From assembly GCA_965199825.1 (NCBI GenBank), contig OZ241329.1:1888001-1952000 (forward strand): a stretch of 64,000 nt of DNA, in the 5' to 3' direction. The notes below the pieces were generated by a model, which worked only from the letters and a program-made list of their open reading frames with translations, had not been told where the DNA came from and ran no database searches. Of this stretch, positions 17,701 to 33,299 are shown piece after piece. The position numbers were made by a program, and so were the translations under genes. Position 1 is the first letter of the stretch; each line of letters starts with the position of its first letter. The DNA is from Bdellovibrionales bacterium. Its GTDB lineage: Bacteria; Bdellovibrionota; Bdellovibrionia; Bdellovibrionales; UBA1609.

Positions 17701-17889
17701 GCTCGAATGCAGCACCAAACCTCAAACTATAAACCAAAATAATTCGCTGACGGCTCGAGAAGACCCTGTTTTTGCGCGAACGAAGGTAGCTATTGGGTTT
17801 TGCTTTTTTTACCAAAAGCGCCGATCCATTACTTTTATGAAATAAATTCTGGTAACTCCCAATCCTTGAACCCCTTGCTAGGAGCCAGA

Positions 17890-18630
17890 ATGAACGAAAT
17901 TTTAGTTGGATGCTTGACCTTACTTGGACTTATTCGCCCGAGCGGTTTTGAAGTTTGGCAAATTCGGGAAATCCAAAAATTAACCGCGACTCTTGAGTTT
18001 GATTCCCGTTCGACCTCTAGAGGATTAACAAAATCGAGTGTCGTGACGATGAACGAGATCAAAGCCCGTTTGGATCGCTCGGCGAGCGAAACCCCATTCA
18101 AATTTATGAAAATTTGGTTTATTGATTTTAACAAAAAACTGGTTCATCTTCCGCAAATCCATCAATGGCGCGAAGACGTCCAGGCTCGAAACAGAATTGC
18201 TGACCTCAACCGATTTTTAAATCATCCTGCACCCAAAGAATTGTGGGAAATTTCTGAAAGTGCATCAAATTCTTCACTCGAAAAACTGCGCCTTAAGGTT
18301 GCGACTAAGATTGAAAAGGCTCTTCCTTTTTTAATTGAGCACCGTAAGGTTTTAAGCCGGCAAGATTACATTTTGAATCATCAACAAAAAATAATTGGCG
18401 ACTATCCTGATCTCGCCCATGCCACCGAAGTGCTGTTGTATTCGATCGATAAACTCGAAACTGAAACCAAAACTCAAACCGTGTTAGATCTTGCACTTCA
18501 CTCAGCAGACTCAATTTGGGCCACGATTCGTCGCCGCCAAGATGGGTTGATACAAAATATTGATGAACAAATTGACCAACTTGTTAAAACTCTTGAAACC
18601 ATTCACGACGTTGTTACAAAGATTCCATGA
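17890..18630 (+). CDS. Hypothetical helical protein, paralog of the next gene
   Basis: ATG at 17890 after GGAG; shares motifs with 18627..19433. Confidence 0.7.
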   Translation: MNEILVGCLTLLGLIRPSGFEVWQIREIQKLTATLEFDSRSTSRGLTKSSVVTMNEIKARLDRSASETPFKFMKIWFIDFNKKLVHLPQIHQWREDVQARNRIADLNRFLNHPAPKELWEISESASNSSLEKLRLKVATKIEKALPFLIEHRKVLSRQDYILNHQQKIIGDYPDLAHATEVLLYSIDKLETETKTQTVLDLALHSADSIWATIRRRQDGLIQNIDEQIDQLVKTLETIHDVVTKIP

Positions 18631-19433
18631 CGCCGATTTTATATACCTGCCTTTCCTTGTTAGGTTTTGTTTCTCCACCCACTGGTTTTGATCAGTGGCG
18701 TTTAAATCAAATGATCTATCTTAAGGAAAAAATCAGTCTTGATACCGAACGAATTCATAGGATTGATCGCAGGGTTTCACGCCTTAATAAAAAAAGTGTT
18801 GATGCGGTCAATATCCTTCAAGCGCGGATCGCAAGGTATCAAACCAAAAATGAAATAAGATTTTTTGCAAAGTGGTATCAAAATTTGCAAACCCAAATCG
18901 ATCAACTTCCCCAAAAAAAAGGTTGGCGAGAGTGGACTCTCAAAATTGATCAAAAAAAATATGAAGATCCCATTCGGCTTTTTGATTTGGCACTCCCAAA
19001 ACAACTTCAAGTCACATTTGATGGGCCCGATTCATCAATTGCTGACCAGCATTTTAATTCTCTTTATCAGCTGCTAAGAAAAACACTCCCTTATTTGCAA
19101 CCCAAATACCGTGCGTTTAACCGCATGAACTACCTCAACACTCATAGCCAAAAAATAATCGGAGCCTATCCACAAATTGCTTTGGAAATAGAGCATGCGA
19201 TTTATGAAATATCTGAAGATCACCGCTCGCCACAATATAGCTCGATCAGCAAATTGGGAGAGTGTCTTGATAAAATGGATTTGATTTGGGGGCAGATCGT
19301 GTTGACTCGGCCTCATCATATCGAGCTCTACATTAAAGATTTGGCGGAGCTTTTAGAAACTCTTTTCGATCATCTTAAACGTTATGATGCGACAGGTTCT
19401 TTTCCTCAGGCGGATCAACAAGCGGCTCAATAA
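18627..19433 (+). CDS. Hypothetical helical protein, paralog of the previous gene
   Basis: ATGA overlap; shared IL..CL.LLG, GF..W, H.QKIIG.YP and D.IW..I motifs. Confidence 0.7.
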   Translation: MTPILYTCLSLLGFVSPPTGFDQWRLNQMIYLKEKISLDTERIHRIDRRVSRLNKKSVDAVNILQARIARYQTKNEIRFFAKWYQNLQTQIDQLPQKKGWREWTLKIDQKKYEDPIRLFDLALPKQLQVTFDGPDSSIADQHFNSLYQLLRKTLPYLQPKYRAFNRMNYLNTHSQKIIGAYPQIALEIEHAIYEISEDHRSPQYSSISKLGECLDKMDLIWGQIVLTRPHHIELYIKDLAELLETLFDHLKRYDATGSFPQADQQAAQ

Positions 19434-22935: not shown

Positions 22936-23484
22936 TCAGTGATGCTCAATGCGATAGTGAAATGGAATGGCCAACGACAACGTGGGCGGCGAGCCCTTCG
23001 GCGGGTTTGGAAAACGATTGATTTGTTTGACCGACTCTAAGGCTGCTTGATTGAGGTTTTCAAATGGCGAAGGGTTTTGAACTTTGAGATTTGAAAAAGT
23101 GCCATCTAGTGCCACATCCACCGACACCAACACATCGCCCTCTTGCTCGCGATCAATCGCACTTTTGGGATAAATCTTGTGATCTTGCAGAAGCTTCACA
23201 ACTTCCAAAATATAGATTCCAGTTTCACTGACAGTTAATTTGTGTTCGGGGATCAACGGCGAGCCAGTAGTCGGGATCATTTTTGTTGGCAAAGATTTTT
23301 TTGGCGCATGAAATGATTTTGGAATTTGAGAATTGAGCTCGGCATGGTGACCCATAGTCTCCACAAAATTTACGCTCACTGGCTCGACCTCAAGTTTTAA
23401 GTCGGGCGCTTTACTTTTTATAAAAATAAAAAGCAAAATAAAATGGATTAAAAATGAAGCAGCAACCCCAGCTTTTAAGCGCAT
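22936..23484 (-). CDS. TonB family energy transducer
   Basis: TM segment with SxxxH (SFLIH), linker, TonB_C YPKSA..EQEG.V.V..LNQAAL. Confidence 0.85.
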   Translation of the reverse strand: MRLKAGVAASFLIHFILLFIFIKSKAPDLKLEVEPVSVNFVETMGHHAELNSQIPKSFHAPKKSLPTKMIPTTGSPLIPEHKLTVSETGIYILEVVKLLQDHKIYPKSAIDREQEGDVLVSVDVALDGTFSNLKVQNPSPFENLNQAALESVKQINRFPNPPKGSPPTLSLAIPFHYRIEHH

Positions 23485-24731
23485 ATGTGATGAAGAGTTT
23501 GATTGATGGTTGACCAAAGATGCTCAATCTCATCCGGTGTGGAGCAGTAGGGTGGCATCGCATAAACGGTCGAGCCAAGAGTGCGAAGATAAATATTGTT
23601 TTTGAGCATTTCTAAATGAAAGCGGCGTGAAAAATCTCCGGCGTAATTTTGATTAAGATTTAATTCTAAAATGCCCACACTGCCAACCACCCGGGTCTCT
23701 CGAACAAAAGGAAAATCTTGGTTGAGACCTTTGAGATGTGCTTTTCGAAGACCATCGATATTTTTTAGAGTTTGGGATTGGCCAAATATTTTCAAATTGG
23801 CAAGAGCTGCAGCACAACTCAAAGCATTGCCGGTAAAACTATGACCATGAAACAGCATTTGATCGGGTGAGCTCGATAAAAAATGATCGAATACGGTTTT
23901 GGTGGTGACGGTCAATCCCATGGGGAGCACCCCAGCGGTCAATCCTTTTGAGAGACATAAAAAATCGGGGTTATGGTCGGTTTGCTCAAAAGCAAACAAG
24001 GTCCCGGTTCGCCCAAACCCGGTCATCACCTCATCAAAAATAATTTTGATATCATGCTCACGTGCAAGTGAACAAATTTTATTTAATGCTTCAATCGGCC
24101 AAGCAATCATTCCGCCGGCTCCCTGAAGAAGGGGTTCGATAATCACCGCACAAACAGTATGACCCTTTTGTTGGACTAACCGATTAAAATCATCCACCCA
24201 ATTTTCTAAGGGATCAGATAAATGCAATCCTTGCTGGGCTCTTAAAATCGGAAATTTAAGTTGTGAGTAAGCTTGGGTAAAGGTGCCGTCCGCACTCACG
24301 CTCATCGCCCCACAGGTGTCGCCGTGATAGGCCTTTTCAAAAGCGATAAACTCTTTGCGCTCAGGCTGGTGATTTTGCTTACAGCTTTGGTAAGCCATTT
24401 TCATCGCAACCTCCACAGCGGTTGAGCCATTGTCCGAAAAAAAAGCATGGTCTAACTGAGAGGGCAAAAAATTTTTAAACTCGGTCATAAATTCGTTGGC
24501 GCTATCATAGATAAAGTTGGCAAACACCACTTGCGAAAGTTTTTGAGATTGATCCGTGATGGCTTTCGTAATGCGGGGATCGGAATGCCCGTGTGTCACC
24601 AACCACCAACTTGAAATCGCATCAAAAATTTTTTTATTTTCTTTTGTGTAAAGATAAGCACCTCGAGCGTGACTGAGATGGACGGGCTCAAGTGCGGTTT
24701 GCATTTGTGTGTAGGGCCGCCAAATTTTCAA
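23475..24731 (-). CDS. bioA: Adenosylmethionine-8-amino-7-oxononanoate aminotransferase
   Basis: WRPYTQM, DAISSWW, SDNGSTAVEVAMK, YHGDT, DEVMTGFGRTG, LSKGLT. Confidence 0.97.
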   Translation of the reverse strand: MKIWRPYTQMQTALEPVHLSHARGAYLYTKENKKIFDAISSWWLVTHGHSDPRITKAITDQSQKLSQVVFANFIYDSANEFMTEFKNFLPSQLDHAFFSDNGSTAVEVAMKMAYQSCKQNHQPERKEFIAFEKAYHGDTCGAMSVSADGTFTQAYSQLKFPILRAQQGLHLSDPLENWVDDFNRLVQQKGHTVCAVIIEPLLQGAGGMIAWPIEALNKICSLAREHDIKIIFDEVMTGFGRTGTLFAFEQTDHNPDFLCLSKGLTAGVLPMGLTVTTKTVFDHFLSSSPDQMLFHGHSFTGNALSCAAALANLKIFGQSQTLKNIDGLRKAHLKGLNQDFPFVRETRVVGSVGILELNLNQNYAGDFSRRFHLEMLKNNIYLRTLGSTVYAMPPYCSTPDEIEHLWSTINQTLHHICA

Positions 24732-25297
24732 ATTGCGGCCTCAAACGCCTGCCATGTTCGGTTGAAACAATCCTCTTCAAGCTCAATCAATTTGTTTTTA
24801 ATTTCGAGTGAAATACTTTTTAGTACTTGCTGAACTTCGCTCAAATGATTTTCTTCATCATTCAAGATAGGCTTTAATGAAAAATCAAATTGAGATTGAT
24901 CTAAGATAGATTCGTAGATTCGGTAAACCTTTAAAGCACGCTCTTCAATCAACCAAGTGACCAACTGATAAATCAGTTTTGGTTGAGCACCTAGAATTTT
25001 TGCCACTCCTAAATCTAAATCGTAAAAGTAGGCCTTGATCGCTTTTTCGCTCAGCAAATTATCGGTGTTAAAACTAGAAAATTTTTGACCACCCACCTTC
25101 ATCGCCAAACGCTTAAAATAAACCGCGTGGCGCACTTCTTCGTAAGTATGGGTCAAAGTCTCGTCGTTGATGTCTTCAGTACCCAAAGAACGGGCAATTT
25201 TTCGAAAGCCACGATACTCGAGATATGAAAAACTATTTAAAAATTTAGCATGGAGTGTGGGCGATTGAACTACGGTTTGGATCAGCTGTTGAACCAT
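24728..25297 (-). CDS. Ferritin-like diiron protein in the biotin operon (BioE-like)
   Basis: E..EEVRH..IEERA..DEENH ligand pattern; overlaps both bioD and bioA. Confidence 0.75.
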   Translation of the reverse strand: MVQQLIQTVVQSPTLHAKFLNSFSYLEYRGFRKIARSLGTEDINDETLTHTYEEVRHAVYFKRLAMKVGGQKFSSFNTDNLLSEKAIKAYFYDLDLGVAKILGAQPKLIYQLVTWLIEERALKVYRIYESILDQSQFDFSLKPILNDEENHLSEVQQVLKSISLEIKNKLIELEEDCFNRTWQAFEAAI

Positions 25298-25884
25298 GAA
25301 AACTCCCAGTTTTTGGTGATATCGGACAATTGATGTAGAGTGATGTGTTCAAGAAAAGGAAGCTGACCAATGACTTTCACCTGTCCAAAATTTTCGATAG
25401 CCTCTTTATTTTCGAAATTGGGATCACCAACCATAATCACTCCAACGACTTCGATCTTTTTTGATTTTAATAGCTCAAGAGTCAACAAAGTATGATTGAT
25501 TGTTCCAAGGCGCGAGCGCGAAACCACCACGGTTTTACATTCAAGTGCCTTGATCAGATCAAACATAAACTGGGCAGAGTTAAGCGGAACAAAAACTCCA
25601 CCTGCACCCTCGATCATCGTCGAATCTTGAGGCTTTAGAGACACCACATGATCAAGCGAAATGGTTTGTTGGCTCAGTTGGGCTGCAAGGTGTGGACTTA
25701 ATGGGTGTTCCAAACAATAAGCCTCAACCGATGTTTTGATTCCAAAGTTTTTTATAATATCGGTATCGCGAGGTGTGCCGCATTGAATCGGCTTCCAATA
25801 ACCAAGATCAAGGTGATTGCACAGTGCAAGCGACGCGATTGTTTTCCCTACGTCGGTATCTGTTCCGGTTACAAACAGATTCAA
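25282..25884 (-). CDS. bioD: Dethiobiotin synthetase
   Basis: FVTGTDTDVGKT, WKPIQCG, SPHLAA, IEGAGG, LGTINHT; likely TTG start after GAGGAG. Confidence 0.96.
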   Translation of the reverse strand: MNLFVTGTDTDVGKTIASLALCNHLDLGYWKPIQCGTPRDTDIIKNFGIKTSVEAYCLEHPLSPHLAAQLSQQTISLDHVVSLKPQDSTMIEGAGGVFVPLNSAQFMFDLIKALECKTVVVSRSRLGTINHTLLTLELLKSKKIEVVGVIMVGDPNFENKEAIENFGQVKVIGQLPFLEHITLHQLSDITKNWEFSWFNS

Positions 25885-26990
25885 TTGAGCTCCTCTCTTA
25901 AACACAGAGCTAAATTCTTGATGTCTTGTGGCTGATGAAAACTTTTAAAAGTAAGACGCAGTCGCTCTTCGCCCTTTGGAACTGTAGGTGAGCGGATCGC
26001 CGCAATCGCAAAACCTTTTTGTTTCATTGCAGTTTGAATCCGCAGCACACTTTCATTTGAGCCGCATATTAAATTTCCGATATGATTTCCTTTAAGATTC
26101 AAATCGAGTTTTGCAAATTCGGTTTTTGCCAATTCGACATTTTGTTTCAACCGCTCGCGAAGCTCAGGGTGGTGTGACAAATAAATTAATGTGAAGTGAA
26201 TTTGAAACAAAACAAATGGTGGGAGTGCGGTGGAATAAATAAATCCTCGGCCCCGGTTGACGATCAGATTTTTAATTTCGGTCGAGCAGGTCACAAAGGC
26301 CCCATACCCTCCAAGAGCTTTTCCGGCGGTGTGGATCACCACCGTTTTTGAATCCGAATCCACAAGCCCATTGCCACTTGGTCCACAAACACCTGTGGCA
26401 TGGGCCTCGTCGATCACGAGCAAGGTCTCAAATTCTTCAGACAGGTTTTTTAAAATTTTAAGATCGGGACCATCCCCATCCATACTAAAAATCGATTCTG
26501 TCACGATTACTTTTTTATTAAAGTTGGAGTGAGTTAATTTTTTTTTCAGATCTTGTAAATCATTGTGCTTAAAAATCGAAATTTTGGATTTTGAAAGTCT
26601 CATCCCATCAATTAGGCTTGCATGATTGTACTCATCCGAAAAAAACTCGGTCTCAAAGTCACCTAATGCCTGCATCACTGATAGATTACAAAGATAGCCT
26701 GATCCTAAAATCAACGCAGCTTGAGAATTAAAGTGCTGTGCCAAAAATTGTTCGGTCTGAACTGTCACCGGGCTATACCCTGAGATCAGCGAAGATCCGG
26801 TGGATCCTAAATCATAATGATTTATATTTTTTAAAAGGTCTTTTTTTAAATCCGCATTTTTTGTCAGACCCAGATAATCGTTCGAACAAAAATCGATTCC
26901 GCTCGAAATCTGAAGTGTGCGGTAAAGACCATCTGATTGAAGTCGATCAAGGACTTCCATATGCCTGCGGCAAACTGCATTCGAGGCCAA
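25881..26990 (-). CDS. bioF: 8-amino-7-oxononanoate synthase
   Basis: FCSNDYLGL, NHASLIDG, ESIFSMDGD, DEAHA, GKALG, RSPTVP. Confidence 0.95.
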   Translation of the reverse strand: MASNAVCRRHMEVLDRLQSDGLYRTLQISSGIDFCSNDYLGLTKNADLKKDLLKNINHYDLGSTGSSLISGYSPVTVQTEQFLAQHFNSQAALILGSGYLCNLSVMQALGDFETEFFSDEYNHASLIDGMRLSKSKISIFKHNDLQDLKKKLTHSNFNKKVIVTESIFSMDGDGPDLKILKNLSEEFETLLVIDEAHATGVCGPSGNGLVDSDSKTVVIHTAGKALGGYGAFVTCSTEIKNLIVNRGRGFIYSTALPPFVLFQIHFTLIYLSHHPELRERLKQNVELAKTEFAKLDLNLKGNHIGNLICGSNESVLRIQTAMKQKGFAIAAIRSPTVPKGEERLRLTFKSFHQPQDIKNLALCLREELN

Positions 26991-27912
26991 GTTTTTTAAG
27001 TAAAGTTTGATCGGTCAATGTCTCGGGATTGGGTGATGTGAGCAATTTTTCTCCTAAGAAAATTGAATTTGCCCCACATAAAAAACACAGCAATTGGGCG
27101 TCATCACTCAAGCCTTTACGTCCCGCGCTCAGACGAATCATCGACTGGGGCGCAAGGATTCTCAAGGTCGCAATCACCCTAAGCAGATCAAAGGTTTCAA
27201 CCGGTTTGGCATTTTCTAATGGAGTGCCCGCGATCGGAATCAAAAGATTAATGGTGATGCTCTCAGGCTGTGGCGTCATATTGACCAAAGTAGTAATAAA
27301 AGAAATTCTGTCATTTTCGGTTTCGCCCATACCGAGAATTCCTCCGGTGCACACTTTGATTTCGGCTGAGCGCACATGACTTAAAGTACTGAGGCGATCG
27401 TTGTAGTCACGGGTTTGGATGATCTGATCGTAGTAGGCTTCAGAAGTATCAATATTGTGATTATAAAAATCTAAGCCCGCGTTTTTGAGCCGCTCAGCTT
27501 GTGAGGGTTTAAGCATTCCGAGGGTACAGCAGACTTCTAATCCCTCATGTTTGACCGCTGTGACCAGCTCTAAAACTTTATCAAAATCGGGACCGTCTTT
27601 AATTTCTCGCCAAGCTGCTCCCATACAAAAACGGCTTGCACCTTGGGCTTTTGCAAAACGCGCGGCATCGACAACTGCGGGCACGTCCATCACCTTTGTT
27701 TTTTCAACACCGGTTTTATAATGCGCCGATTGGGGACAGTACGCACAATTCTCAGGGCATCCTCCCGTTTTGATCGACAGCAGCGAAGAGGCTTGTAGCT
27801 CACTATTTTTAAAATATTTTTGATGAACACCGACAGCCGTCGAGATCAATTTAAAAAGGGGCATACTAAAAGTTGGAGAAATTTCAATCGACATGGCCAA
27901 ATTTCTTCTCAA
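26947..27912 (-). CDS. bioB: Biotin synthase
   Basis: CPENCAYCPQ radical-SAM motif, RFCMGAAWR, YNHNIDT, IRLSAGR. Confidence 0.98.
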   Translation of the reverse strand: MRRNLAMSIEISPTFSMPLFKLISTAVGVHQKYFKNSELQASSLLSIKTGGCPENCAYCPQSAHYKTGVEKTKVMDVPAVVDAARFAKAQGASRFCMGAAWREIKDGPDFDKVLELVTAVKHEGLEVCCTLGMLKPSQAERLKNAGLDFYNHNIDTSEAYYDQIIQTRDYNDRLSTLSHVRSAEIKVCTGGILGMGETENDRISFITTLVNMTPQPESITINLLIPIAGTPLENAKPVETFDLLRVIATLRILAPQSMIRLSAGRKGLSDDAQLLCFLCGANSIFLGEKLLTSPNPETLTDQTLLKKLGLECSLPQAYGSP

Positions 27913-32372: not shown

Positions 32373-33299
32373 TTAATCCACAAGCCCTGTCAATTCAGAA
32401 AATATTTGGTGGGATTTCGTCGCCTTTATTAAAAATTCGTTATGATAAATGGTGTACAGAGCGAGATGGTTGTTGAGATCTTGAATTTTCTTGGTGGTAC
32501 ACCAAGTTCTTCGCGACATCCTCTTAAGATTATCCCGAATCATTGCACAGGTATGATTCAAACTGAAGATGGGATCAAAGCCTCCGCGTTTAAGTTCACC
32601 TTGTCCGACAACGCAGCCTCTTTTGCCCTTAAAAGTCTTGTGCTCATGATATTTAAAATGTTTTTTTATATCTGCAGAATAATGAGGATTTTTATCGGAG
32701 TGGAAGATGCAATCCTTTCGAATCAAAGTTTTAAGTTTTTTAAAAAGCCTAGTGCGAGCTTCAGATCTCTCATCTTTCCGGTAGCCGTATTTAAGCCGAG
32801 CTTTCTTGCTTAATAATCCTTTAGCCGGCATCTGGCTGCATTCAACACCAAGGATTCGTCTGGTTTTTTTGTCAACCGCTATCGTGATTGAAATTGGTTT
32901 ACACTTGGTATGCTCAAAGGTTTCCATATCGTCAAATTGCACTTCAGTAATGTTTTGCTCTTTGATTTGTTGATCTAAAAAATCAAATGAAAGAGCTGCC
33001 AGAAAACGAAATTTTCTAATTATAGTTTTACGATTTGTTCTTAGAACAAGCGCGGTTCTTCTTTTAGAAAACCCACCACACAGTTTGTGATAAATCGGAA
33101 TATTTAAATTCCGTTTCTTTTGACGATAGCAGACTTCGCGGGTTGCACTTGAAAAACTCTTGTTACATTGAATACAGCAATAGCGTTGAATTTTTTTTTG
33201 ATCGGATTTTCGAAAGAAAAATCCGGCTTTACGAAATCGCATCCGATCTTTTCCGGATATTTTTTCGCAATCACAAACTGGGTTTGATCTCTGATTCAT
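32373..33299 (-). CDS. IS1-family-like transposase (Zn ribbon, HTH and RNase H-like domain in one ORF)
   Basis: CDC..QRYCCIQC; helical FSKRRTALVL; QFDDME, HSDKNPHY; NHTCAMIRDNLKRMSRRTWCTTKK resembles the InsB C-terminal helix. Confidence 0.75.
   Translation of the reverse strand: MNQRSNPVCDCEKISGKDRMRFRKAGFFFRKSDQKKIQRYCCIQCNKSFSSATREVCYRQKKRNLNIPIYHKLCGGFSKRRTALVLRTNRKTIIRKFRFLAALSFDFLDQQIKEQNITEVQFDDMETFEHTKCKPISITIAVDKKTRRILGVECSQMPAKGLLSKKARLKYGYRKDERSEARTRLFKKLKTLIRKDCIFHSDKNPHYSADIKKHFKYHEHKTFKGKRGCVVGQGELKRGGFDPIFSLNHTCAMIRDNLKRMSRRTWCTTKKIQDLNNHLALYTIYHNEFLIKATKSHQIFSELTGLVD

Follow-up and report, generated by a model that had tools for sequence, protein, structure and literature searches.

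The window analysed here, a stretch of 64,000 nucleotides from a Bdellovibrionales bacterium, contains a biotin operon in which no pimelate-supply gene was found, as the initial annotation had remarked, and this raises the question of how biotin synthesis starts in this organism. The same annotation proposed that a 189-aa protein encoded within the operon (P0001, the protein under study) opens the pathway by a BioE-like, O2-dependent route. The comparisons reported here support the reading that P0001 is a distant BioE homolog that makes a pimeloyl thioester feeding BioF, to which we assign a probability of about 0.9.

The diiron oxygenase BioE, which the initial annotation named for Elizabethkingia and Chryseobacterium, has indeed been published. 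According to the main texts of two reports, BioE, whose activity was shown in late 2025, is an iron enzyme that cuts long fatty acids to the biotin starter (PMC12704756, PMC12915131). The enzyme of Elizabethkingia meningoseptica (EmBioE) cleaves C14–C18 acyl-CoA or acyl-ACP at C7–C8 with O2, complements E. coli ΔbioC/H, and needs residues E26, E53, H56, E125, E155 and H158 (PMC12704756); alanine mutants of its pocket residues L22, Y117, I124 and L131 abolish activity (PMC12915131). The fold of cyanobacterial-type aldehyde-deformylating oxygenase (cADO) was named as the closest to BioE (PMC12704756). CpBioE of Chlamydia psittaci is a monomer that accepts only acyl-ACP, and Chlamydia BioE occurs without BioL (PMC12915131). 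The same net reaction on acyl-ACP is carried out by BioI (PMC12704756, PMC12915131). The published homolog sets were defined by more than 45% identity and more than 90% cover (PNAS) or more than 40% and more than 85% (Adv Sci) to EmBioE, and the taxa named were Weeksellaceae, Flavobacteriaceae, Chitinophagaceae, Sphingobacteriaceae, Flectobacillaceae, Burkholderiaceae and Chlamydiaceae (PMC12704756, PMC12915131). Bdellovibrio, Bacteriovorax, Oligoflex- and Leptospira are mentioned nowhere in both main texts and the text of the PNAS supplement, while the Adv Sci supplement may list further taxa. A search of titles and opening lines of abstracts, with most subscription journals outside its reach, returned no report of BioE or pimeloyl synthesis in Bdellovibrionota.

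The Biotin Operon and the P0001 Gene

The genes overlap and form one operon in the order bioB-bioF-bioD-x-bioA, in which x is the P0001 gene (Table 1). All four late bio genes described by the initial annotation are present, since BioB, BioD and BioA score over their cut-offs and BioF has its best match in its own family, below the cut-off. The overlap of the P0001 gene with both neighbours was likewise confirmed: its start shares 16 nt with bioD, and its TGA shares 4 nt with the TTG of bioA in the common sequence TTGA. Its minus-strand frame is free of stops and the opposite, plus-strand frame contains many, and a GGAG lies 5 nt 5' of its ATG as a GAGG lies 7 nt 5' of the bioA TTG. The diiron motifs noticed earlier all occur in the translation, namely YLE (E27), EEVRH (E54/H57), IEERA (E118) and DEENH (E148/H151).

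Table 1. Features discussed in the text, given as window coordinates unless a locus or genome is named.
Feature	Coordinates	Strand	Remarks
bioB, biotin synthase	26947..27912	-	longest ORF; ATG 27894 is the likely start; TIGR00433, 362 bits (cut-off 225)
bioF, 8-amino-7-oxononanoate synthase	25881..26990	-	best match TIGR00858, 350 bits (cut-off 426); 33% identity to EmBioF
bioD, dethiobiotin synthase	25282..25905	-	TIGR00347, 129 bits (cut-off 83)
bioE-type gene, predicted ferritin-like diiron oxygenase, 189 aa (P0001)	24728..25297	-	predicted ligands E27, E54, H57, E118, E148, H151
bioA, DAPA aminotransferase	23475..24731	-	TTG start; TIGR00508, 475 bits (cut-off 405)
TonB C-terminal protein gene	22936-23517	-	
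Two tandem genes	17800-19433	+	276 and 268 aa
ORF, presumably transposase-like	32373-33299	-	308 aa
bioB-bioF followed by an alpha/beta-hydrolase gene (G169, G300)	L085:7701-11437; L088:2728-5319		
Ferredoxin genes beside bioB	L084:8861-9262; L087:8635-9078; L091:8454-8858; L092:8696-9139; L093:8942-9343		
Biotin-carrier proteins, carboxylase-type clusters and PF03099 ligase, own genome	G000:C1:910019-915150; 682285-687310; 1859335-1860069		cluster names by eye
Diiron gene with FabD-like gene	L010:1435-3037; L011:1265-3418; L068:5302-7845; L069:4639-6959; L089:192-2278		
Second homolog in G293	L072:5548-8792		

The P0001 protein had no match in Pfam (E ≤ 0.1), NCBIfam or the PDB sequences, and EmBioE likewise has no Pfam or NCBIfam match. 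A rubrerythrin function of P0001 was rejected, the name being an automatic label. P0001 has no match to PF02915, though a few homologs carry a precomputed PF02915 assignment. The gene is single-copy in its own genome. Homologs numbered 24 proteins by word search, 437 by profile and 521 representatives by phmmer (E ≤ 0.001), and the six iron ligands are invariant across a 23-sequence alignment. The P0001 gene is therefore a real, conserved gene. Its named near homologs come from Pseudobdellovibrionaceae, Bacteriovorax and Bdellovibrionia, and the ribosomal protein L25 encoded in the window is closest to a cluster made up mostly of Bdellovibrionota proteins (0.95, against 0.94 for clusters from other phyla), both of which point to the lineage. 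For P0001 itself, the nearest clusters in the ESM Atlas are hypothetical proteins without names. Plasmid and phage records gave no match. No fused or longer form appeared among 7999 candidates, which is weak evidence because known tandem paralogs were not recovered by that search either.

The GC content of the operon equals that of its flanks, and composition therefore gives no sign of recent transfer. Promoter and terminator scans stayed at chance level (11 hits against 9.3 expected), and no convincing operator was found upstream of bioB. In the biotin ligase of the genome (BirA) the ligase domain begins at residue 23, which would leave no room for a DNA-binding domain, so that BirA looks ligase-only from its sequence. 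The TonB C-terminal protein gene lies 3' of bioA with no clear terminator between them. Elsewhere in the window, the two tandem genes look similar to each other and lack a Pfam match, as does the 308-aa ORF, which we take by eye to be transposase-like from its N-terminal zinc-finger cysteines and acidic catalytic-type motifs.

Comparison with EmBioE

The EmBioE sequence used here, from E. meningoseptica ATCC 13253, has 209 aa, fits the published residue numbering and has BioL encoded upstream. Searching with a published primer gave nine matches, of which five were unrelated; the others identified bioE in two genomes of E. meningoseptica and in two Chitinophagaceae bioBFDAE operons. P0001 shares 29% identity with EmBioE over 168 aa (E 4e-22), and hhalign with the profile of the P0001 clade gave a probability of 99.9% over 197 columns; the two proteins are homologous over the whole length, which supports the BioE-like route proposed by the initial annotation. 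The identity lies below both published thresholds, which are search criteria and not functional ones.

All six ligands of EmBioE are kept in P0001 (EmBioE/P0001: E26/E27, E53/E54, H56/H57, E125/E118, E155/E148, H158/H151). The ligands alone are not diagnostic, because the FabD-linked paralogs of loci L010 and L011 also keep all six and lack the R-K pair. Two of the four carrier-binding residues are identical (R31/R32, K32/K33) and two are conservatively replaced (F24/Y25, R87/K88), the positions of F24 and R87 varying even among Bacteroidota homologs. The acyl tunnel, mapped by alignment only, has five of nine residues identical (I33/I34, Y89/Y90, Y117/Y110, I124/I117, F188/F178) and three hydrophobic swaps (L22/F23, L90/F91, L131/V124), and W191 is aligned to T181, one residue past which P0001 has a Trp. 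The low identity of 29% and the loss of Q88, H91 and W191 of EmBioE were counted against a BioE function. Among the six critical dimer residues of EmBioE, R31, L47 and K61 are identical, Y75 is conservatively replaced by F76, and E37 and V40 are lost (L38 and E41 in P0001), which was likewise counted against it; the interface is one of EmBioE only, CpBioE being a monomer.

Like EmBioE and the BioE of Chryseobacterium indologenes, P0001 has the ligand spacing 27/3 and 30/3, the R-K pair, a hydrophobic tunnel and, in its predicted model, a cADO-like fold; it also shares with them the placement in a bioFDAB cluster and the absence of a known alternative pimeloyl gene. In contrast to EmBioE, it has 189 instead of 209 aa, with eight residues missing ahead of the third ligand helix and a shorter C-terminus, it falls in a separate clade, it lacks the dimer-interface residues E37 and V40, and its locus is a single bioB-F-D-E-A operon, where that of EmBioE is bioEFD plus bioBA. 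An EmBioL query found no match among the ORFs of the own genome (E<1e-3), and P0001 does not belong to a BioE-BioL module. CpBioE resembles P0001 in lacking bioL, in having a Lys (K102) where EmBioE has R87 and, judging from the published residue numbers, in the spacing within each E/ExxH pair. BioI of Bacillus subtilis is a heme enzyme, a cytochrome P450, with a fold unrelated to P0001. In sequence homology, ligands, carrier site, tunnel, fold and bio-gene context P0001 agreed with BioE, the fold being that of a predicted model. The initial annotation had left open whether the gene is a range extension or a divergent subfamily, and both descriptions hold: P0001 is a new, divergent member of the known BioE family and not a new enzyme class.

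Predicted Structure

The AlphaFold model of P0001 is all-helical with a pLDDT of 95. Foldseek with this model gave no match at E ≤ 0.001 and only weak ferritin-like matches (E>0.1), with DPS-like proteins high in the ranking. After re-alignment of the top 993 Foldseek chains by VIA-align, aldehyde-deformylating oxygenase came first (Z 15.1, rmsd 2.9, 171 residues); other ferritin-like proteins were within 1–2 Z of it, DPS-like proteins reached 12.1, and Z values near 13–15 are about the level that helical bundles attain from shape alone. The predicted fold of P0001 is ferritin-like and of the cADO-type four-helix kind. As the best structural match, cADO (PDB 5ux1, 4kvq) resembles the P0001 model in its two E/ExxH ligand sets and long-chain tunnel, whereas it differs in sequence (13–17% identity), in its unrelated gene context and in its chemistry, since cADO splits free aldehydes between C1 and C2 into an alkane and formate.

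Alternative Pimelate Routes in the Own Genome

As the initial annotation had proposed, the own genome (2.84 Mb, 5 contigs, 100% complete) was searched for the routes whose presence would account for pimelate, and no canonical alternative was found. BioC gave eight weak matches, the strongest scoring 59 bits against a cut-off of 185; six of the eight match another methyltransferase family best (three over cut-off), the other two being L012 and L017. BioH gave five weak matches (best 80 of 207 bits). BioW, BioG, P450 and BioY had no match. The single FabH-family gene lies in the fab cluster and scores as an ordinary FabH, and no second FabH was found. This one-by-one screen covered the commoner families, with the rarer BioK, BioV, BioJ, BtsA, BioT and BioUh outside it.

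Heme-copper oxidase subunit I is present, and the use of O2 is therefore plausible. A stand-alone 2Fe-2S ferredoxin, a possible electron donor, is encoded elsewhere in the genome (G000:C1:1119810-1120091). Two biotin-carrier proteins stand in clusters of the propionyl-CoA-carboxylase/mutase type and the methylcrotonyl-CoA-carboxylase type (Table 1), with no canonical AccB apparent. A single PF03099 ligase was detected, although lipoyl-domain proteins are present.

Survey of the Phylum

The survey sample comprised 301 genomes, at least 90% complete and including the own genome, of a phylum that is likely Bdellovibrionota. The P0001-family profile matched 63 of them. Twelve of these, with E weaker than 5e-15, were treated as paralog carriers and not counted further (11 from one family plus G242; context seen for four), leaving 51 carriers. 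BioB was found in 55 genomes and BioA over cut-off in 55, both together in 54, and 49 of these 54 have the bioE-type gene, which also occurs in 49 of the 55 genomes with bioB. None of the three genes is present in 244 of the 301 genomes. The counts include kin and are not independent, and no P value is given for this reason. In 44 of the 51 carriers the bioE-type gene lies within 300 bp of bioA; in one it is beside bioD, in one beside a bioA cut by the contig end, and in five it stands apart from bio genes, with bioA elsewhere in all five. All 12 paralog carriers lack both bioA and bioB. Every one of the 48 phylum homologs compared is below 40% identity to EmBioE.

No genome of the 301 had BioC or BioW over cut-off. 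The BioC screen was blunt, with at most 8 candidates scored per genome, and it missed an operon methyltransferase in G169, one of five genomes (G169, G300, G151, G282, G288) that have bioA and bioB and no bioE-type gene. In G169 and G300, bioB-bioF is followed by an alpha/beta-hydrolase gene (Table 1), that of G300 being a fragment at a contig end, and G169 also has the methyltransferase 3' of bioF, with BioC as its best match (75.7 bits). These genes probably represent a divergent BioC-BioH pair. The 75.7-bit score is below the survey threshold, and the absence of BioC therefore means the absence of a canonical BioC. Neither G169 gene has an ortholog in the own genome, where the best match of the BioC-like gene is UbiE (34% over 95 aa) and the hydrolase has none. 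The remaining three genomes (93–95% complete) showed no recognised pimelate route, which, like the five carriers whose gene stands apart from bio genes, was counted against the BioE reading.

Fused bioD-bioA genes of about 650 aa occur in relatives (L087, L091, L092). Five bio clusters, all from one family, have next to bioB a divergently oriented gene for a 2Fe-2S, ISC-like ferredoxin, and the three scanned scored below the cut-off of TIGR02007. This ferredoxin is a candidate electron donor of BioE or Fe-S partner of BioB in these related genomes only.

Phylogeny and Possible Operon Transfer

The tree of the P0001 family has 75 rows and was rooted at the midpoint, the root not being inferred. 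P0001 falls in a 13-row clade (support 100/98) whose five genome-placed members belong to five families, and its four relatives there (L029–L032) all show the order bioF-D-x-A. The six homologs from its own family lie elsewhere in the tree, and the AU test rejects a grouping of P0001 with them (p 6.6e-5), the taxonomy-defined group having been chosen after a quick tree had been seen. EmBioE lies among bio-linked homologs within a 66-row clade (94/82), and the FabD-linked paralogs fall outside it. That P0001 and EmBioE are in different clades was counted against a BioE function, because the function of P0001 is then not bracketed by two characterised members.

The five-family clade reappeared in a quick BioA tree (SH 99), in which E. 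meningoseptica also kept its partners. Patristic distances of BioE and BioA correlate with a rho of 0.79 over 46 loci and of 0.75 over 920 cross-family pairs, as computed without a housekeeping control. Since the trees of the bioE-type gene and BioA agree and cut across families, these data suggest that the bioE-type gene travels with the whole operon between families.

Proposed Function of P0001

The proposed pimelate role draws on homology, conservation of ligands and pocket, position in the operon and the lack of canonical alternatives, together with the modelled fold, and its chemistry would follow EmBioE by analogy. P0001 would use O2 and its diiron centre to cut a long-chain acyl-ACP or acyl-CoA at C7–C8. 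As judged from the EmBioE work, the phosphopantetheine end may dock on a basic patch (Y25, R32, K33, K88), the acyl chain may lie in the hydrophobic tunnel (F23, I34, Y90, F91, Y110, I117, V124, F178), and repeated oxidations would yield a pimeloyl-carrier and a C(n-7) acid. BioF would then take the pimeloyl thioester, and BioF, BioA, BioD and BioB would complete biotin, which would serve the propionyl-CoA- and methylcrotonyl-CoA-type carboxylases.

Another possibility is that P0001 oxidises acyl chains to a different product, by desaturation or hydroxylation, and that the organism obtains pimelate through BioC/BioH-type isoenzymes that escaped recognition, or takes it from prey. Lipid-type loci that lack bio genes do encode related diiron proteins, ahead of FabD-like acyltransferases or, in Leptospira-like contigs, behind lmtA and an acyltransferase; moreover, the own genome contains five hydrolases and two methyltransferases (L012, L017) without a family assignment, and BioC-like genes of an operon may score far below the cut-off. 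We nevertheless regard this explanation as improbable, given that all four loci of the own clade keep the same bioF-D-x-A order, that the own genome lacks orthologs of the G169 pair and that the paralog carriers have neither bioA nor bioB. Least probable is an accessory role late in the pathway, such as providing BioB with iron or Fe-S support or protecting it from oxidation in the manner of BsaP or rubrerythrin, which the automatic naming of several homologs as rubrerythrin, the high Foldseek rank of DPS-like proteins and the close tracking of bioB (49/55) would fit, but against which stand the full-length homology to an enzyme with demonstrated cleavage activity, the retained acyl tunnel and carrier-binding residues, the usual adjacency to bioA and not bioB, the retention of bioB in G169 with a BioC/H-like pair and no bioE-type gene, and the ranking of cADO above DPS-like proteins.

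If P0001 acts as a BioE, it would account for how biotin synthesis begins in this organism, and its homologs would do so for most biotin makers of the phylum, as judged from the survey. The bioE-type gene appears to be the usual pimelate route in Bdellovibrionota, a likely predatory group absent from the published surveys. More broadly, and with somewhat less assurance than for P0001 itself, we consider it likely that BioE and not BioC-BioH is the default start of biotin synthesis across the phylum, with about nine in ten biotin makers using BioL-free forms below 40% identity to EmBioE that move as whole operons, and with a FabD-like sister module acting on other acyl chains. BioE would then be much more ancient and widespread than its portrayal as a route of Weeksellaceae and Chlamydia pathogens suggests. 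Auxotrophy calls that seek only BioC/H, BioW, BioI and BioZ would misread such genomes, because the bioE-type gene would fill the first step. The enzyme type itself is already known; the new elements are its divergence here and its distribution across the phylum. As a short, BioL-free form from a harmless host at 29% identity, P0001 would also be a useful probe of the residues that fix C7–C8 cleavage and the choice between ACP and CoA in this 10-electron reaction.

Homologs and Paralogs Away from Biotin Genes

In five loci (Table 1), a FabD-like acyltransferase gene lies directly 3' of a distant BioE-like diiron gene, the FabD-like call being made by HMM for L010, L011, L068 and L069 and by eye for L089. 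The diiron proteins of this family have a single domain or two tandem domains (430–470 aa) and are not found with bio genes; L011 adds a fatty-acid hydroxylase and a DUF455 gene, and L068 a Coq4-like gene. The diiron protein and the FabD-like acyltransferase possibly form an undescribed acyl-chain-oxidising module.

Leptospira species encode homologs of the BioE family (P0057, P0063, P0074, P0075) with 30–39% identity to EmBioE. A bio-linked range extension to Leptospira was not supported, the nearest metagenome contigs having no bio gene within 5 kb. In Leptospira-like contigs (L097–L101, L125) the homolog follows the lipid A methyltransferase gene lmtA, an acyltransferase gene and a 215-aa gene. 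A Leptospira-based query found 153 metagenome loci. Of the 80 best, 52 contain a bio gene, as do 26 of the 35 that reach 6 kb or more; the Leptospira-like loci contain none. Finally, the second homolog in G293 has a degenerate second ExxH and lies beside methyltransferase and asparagine-synthetase/lasso-cyclase-like genes.
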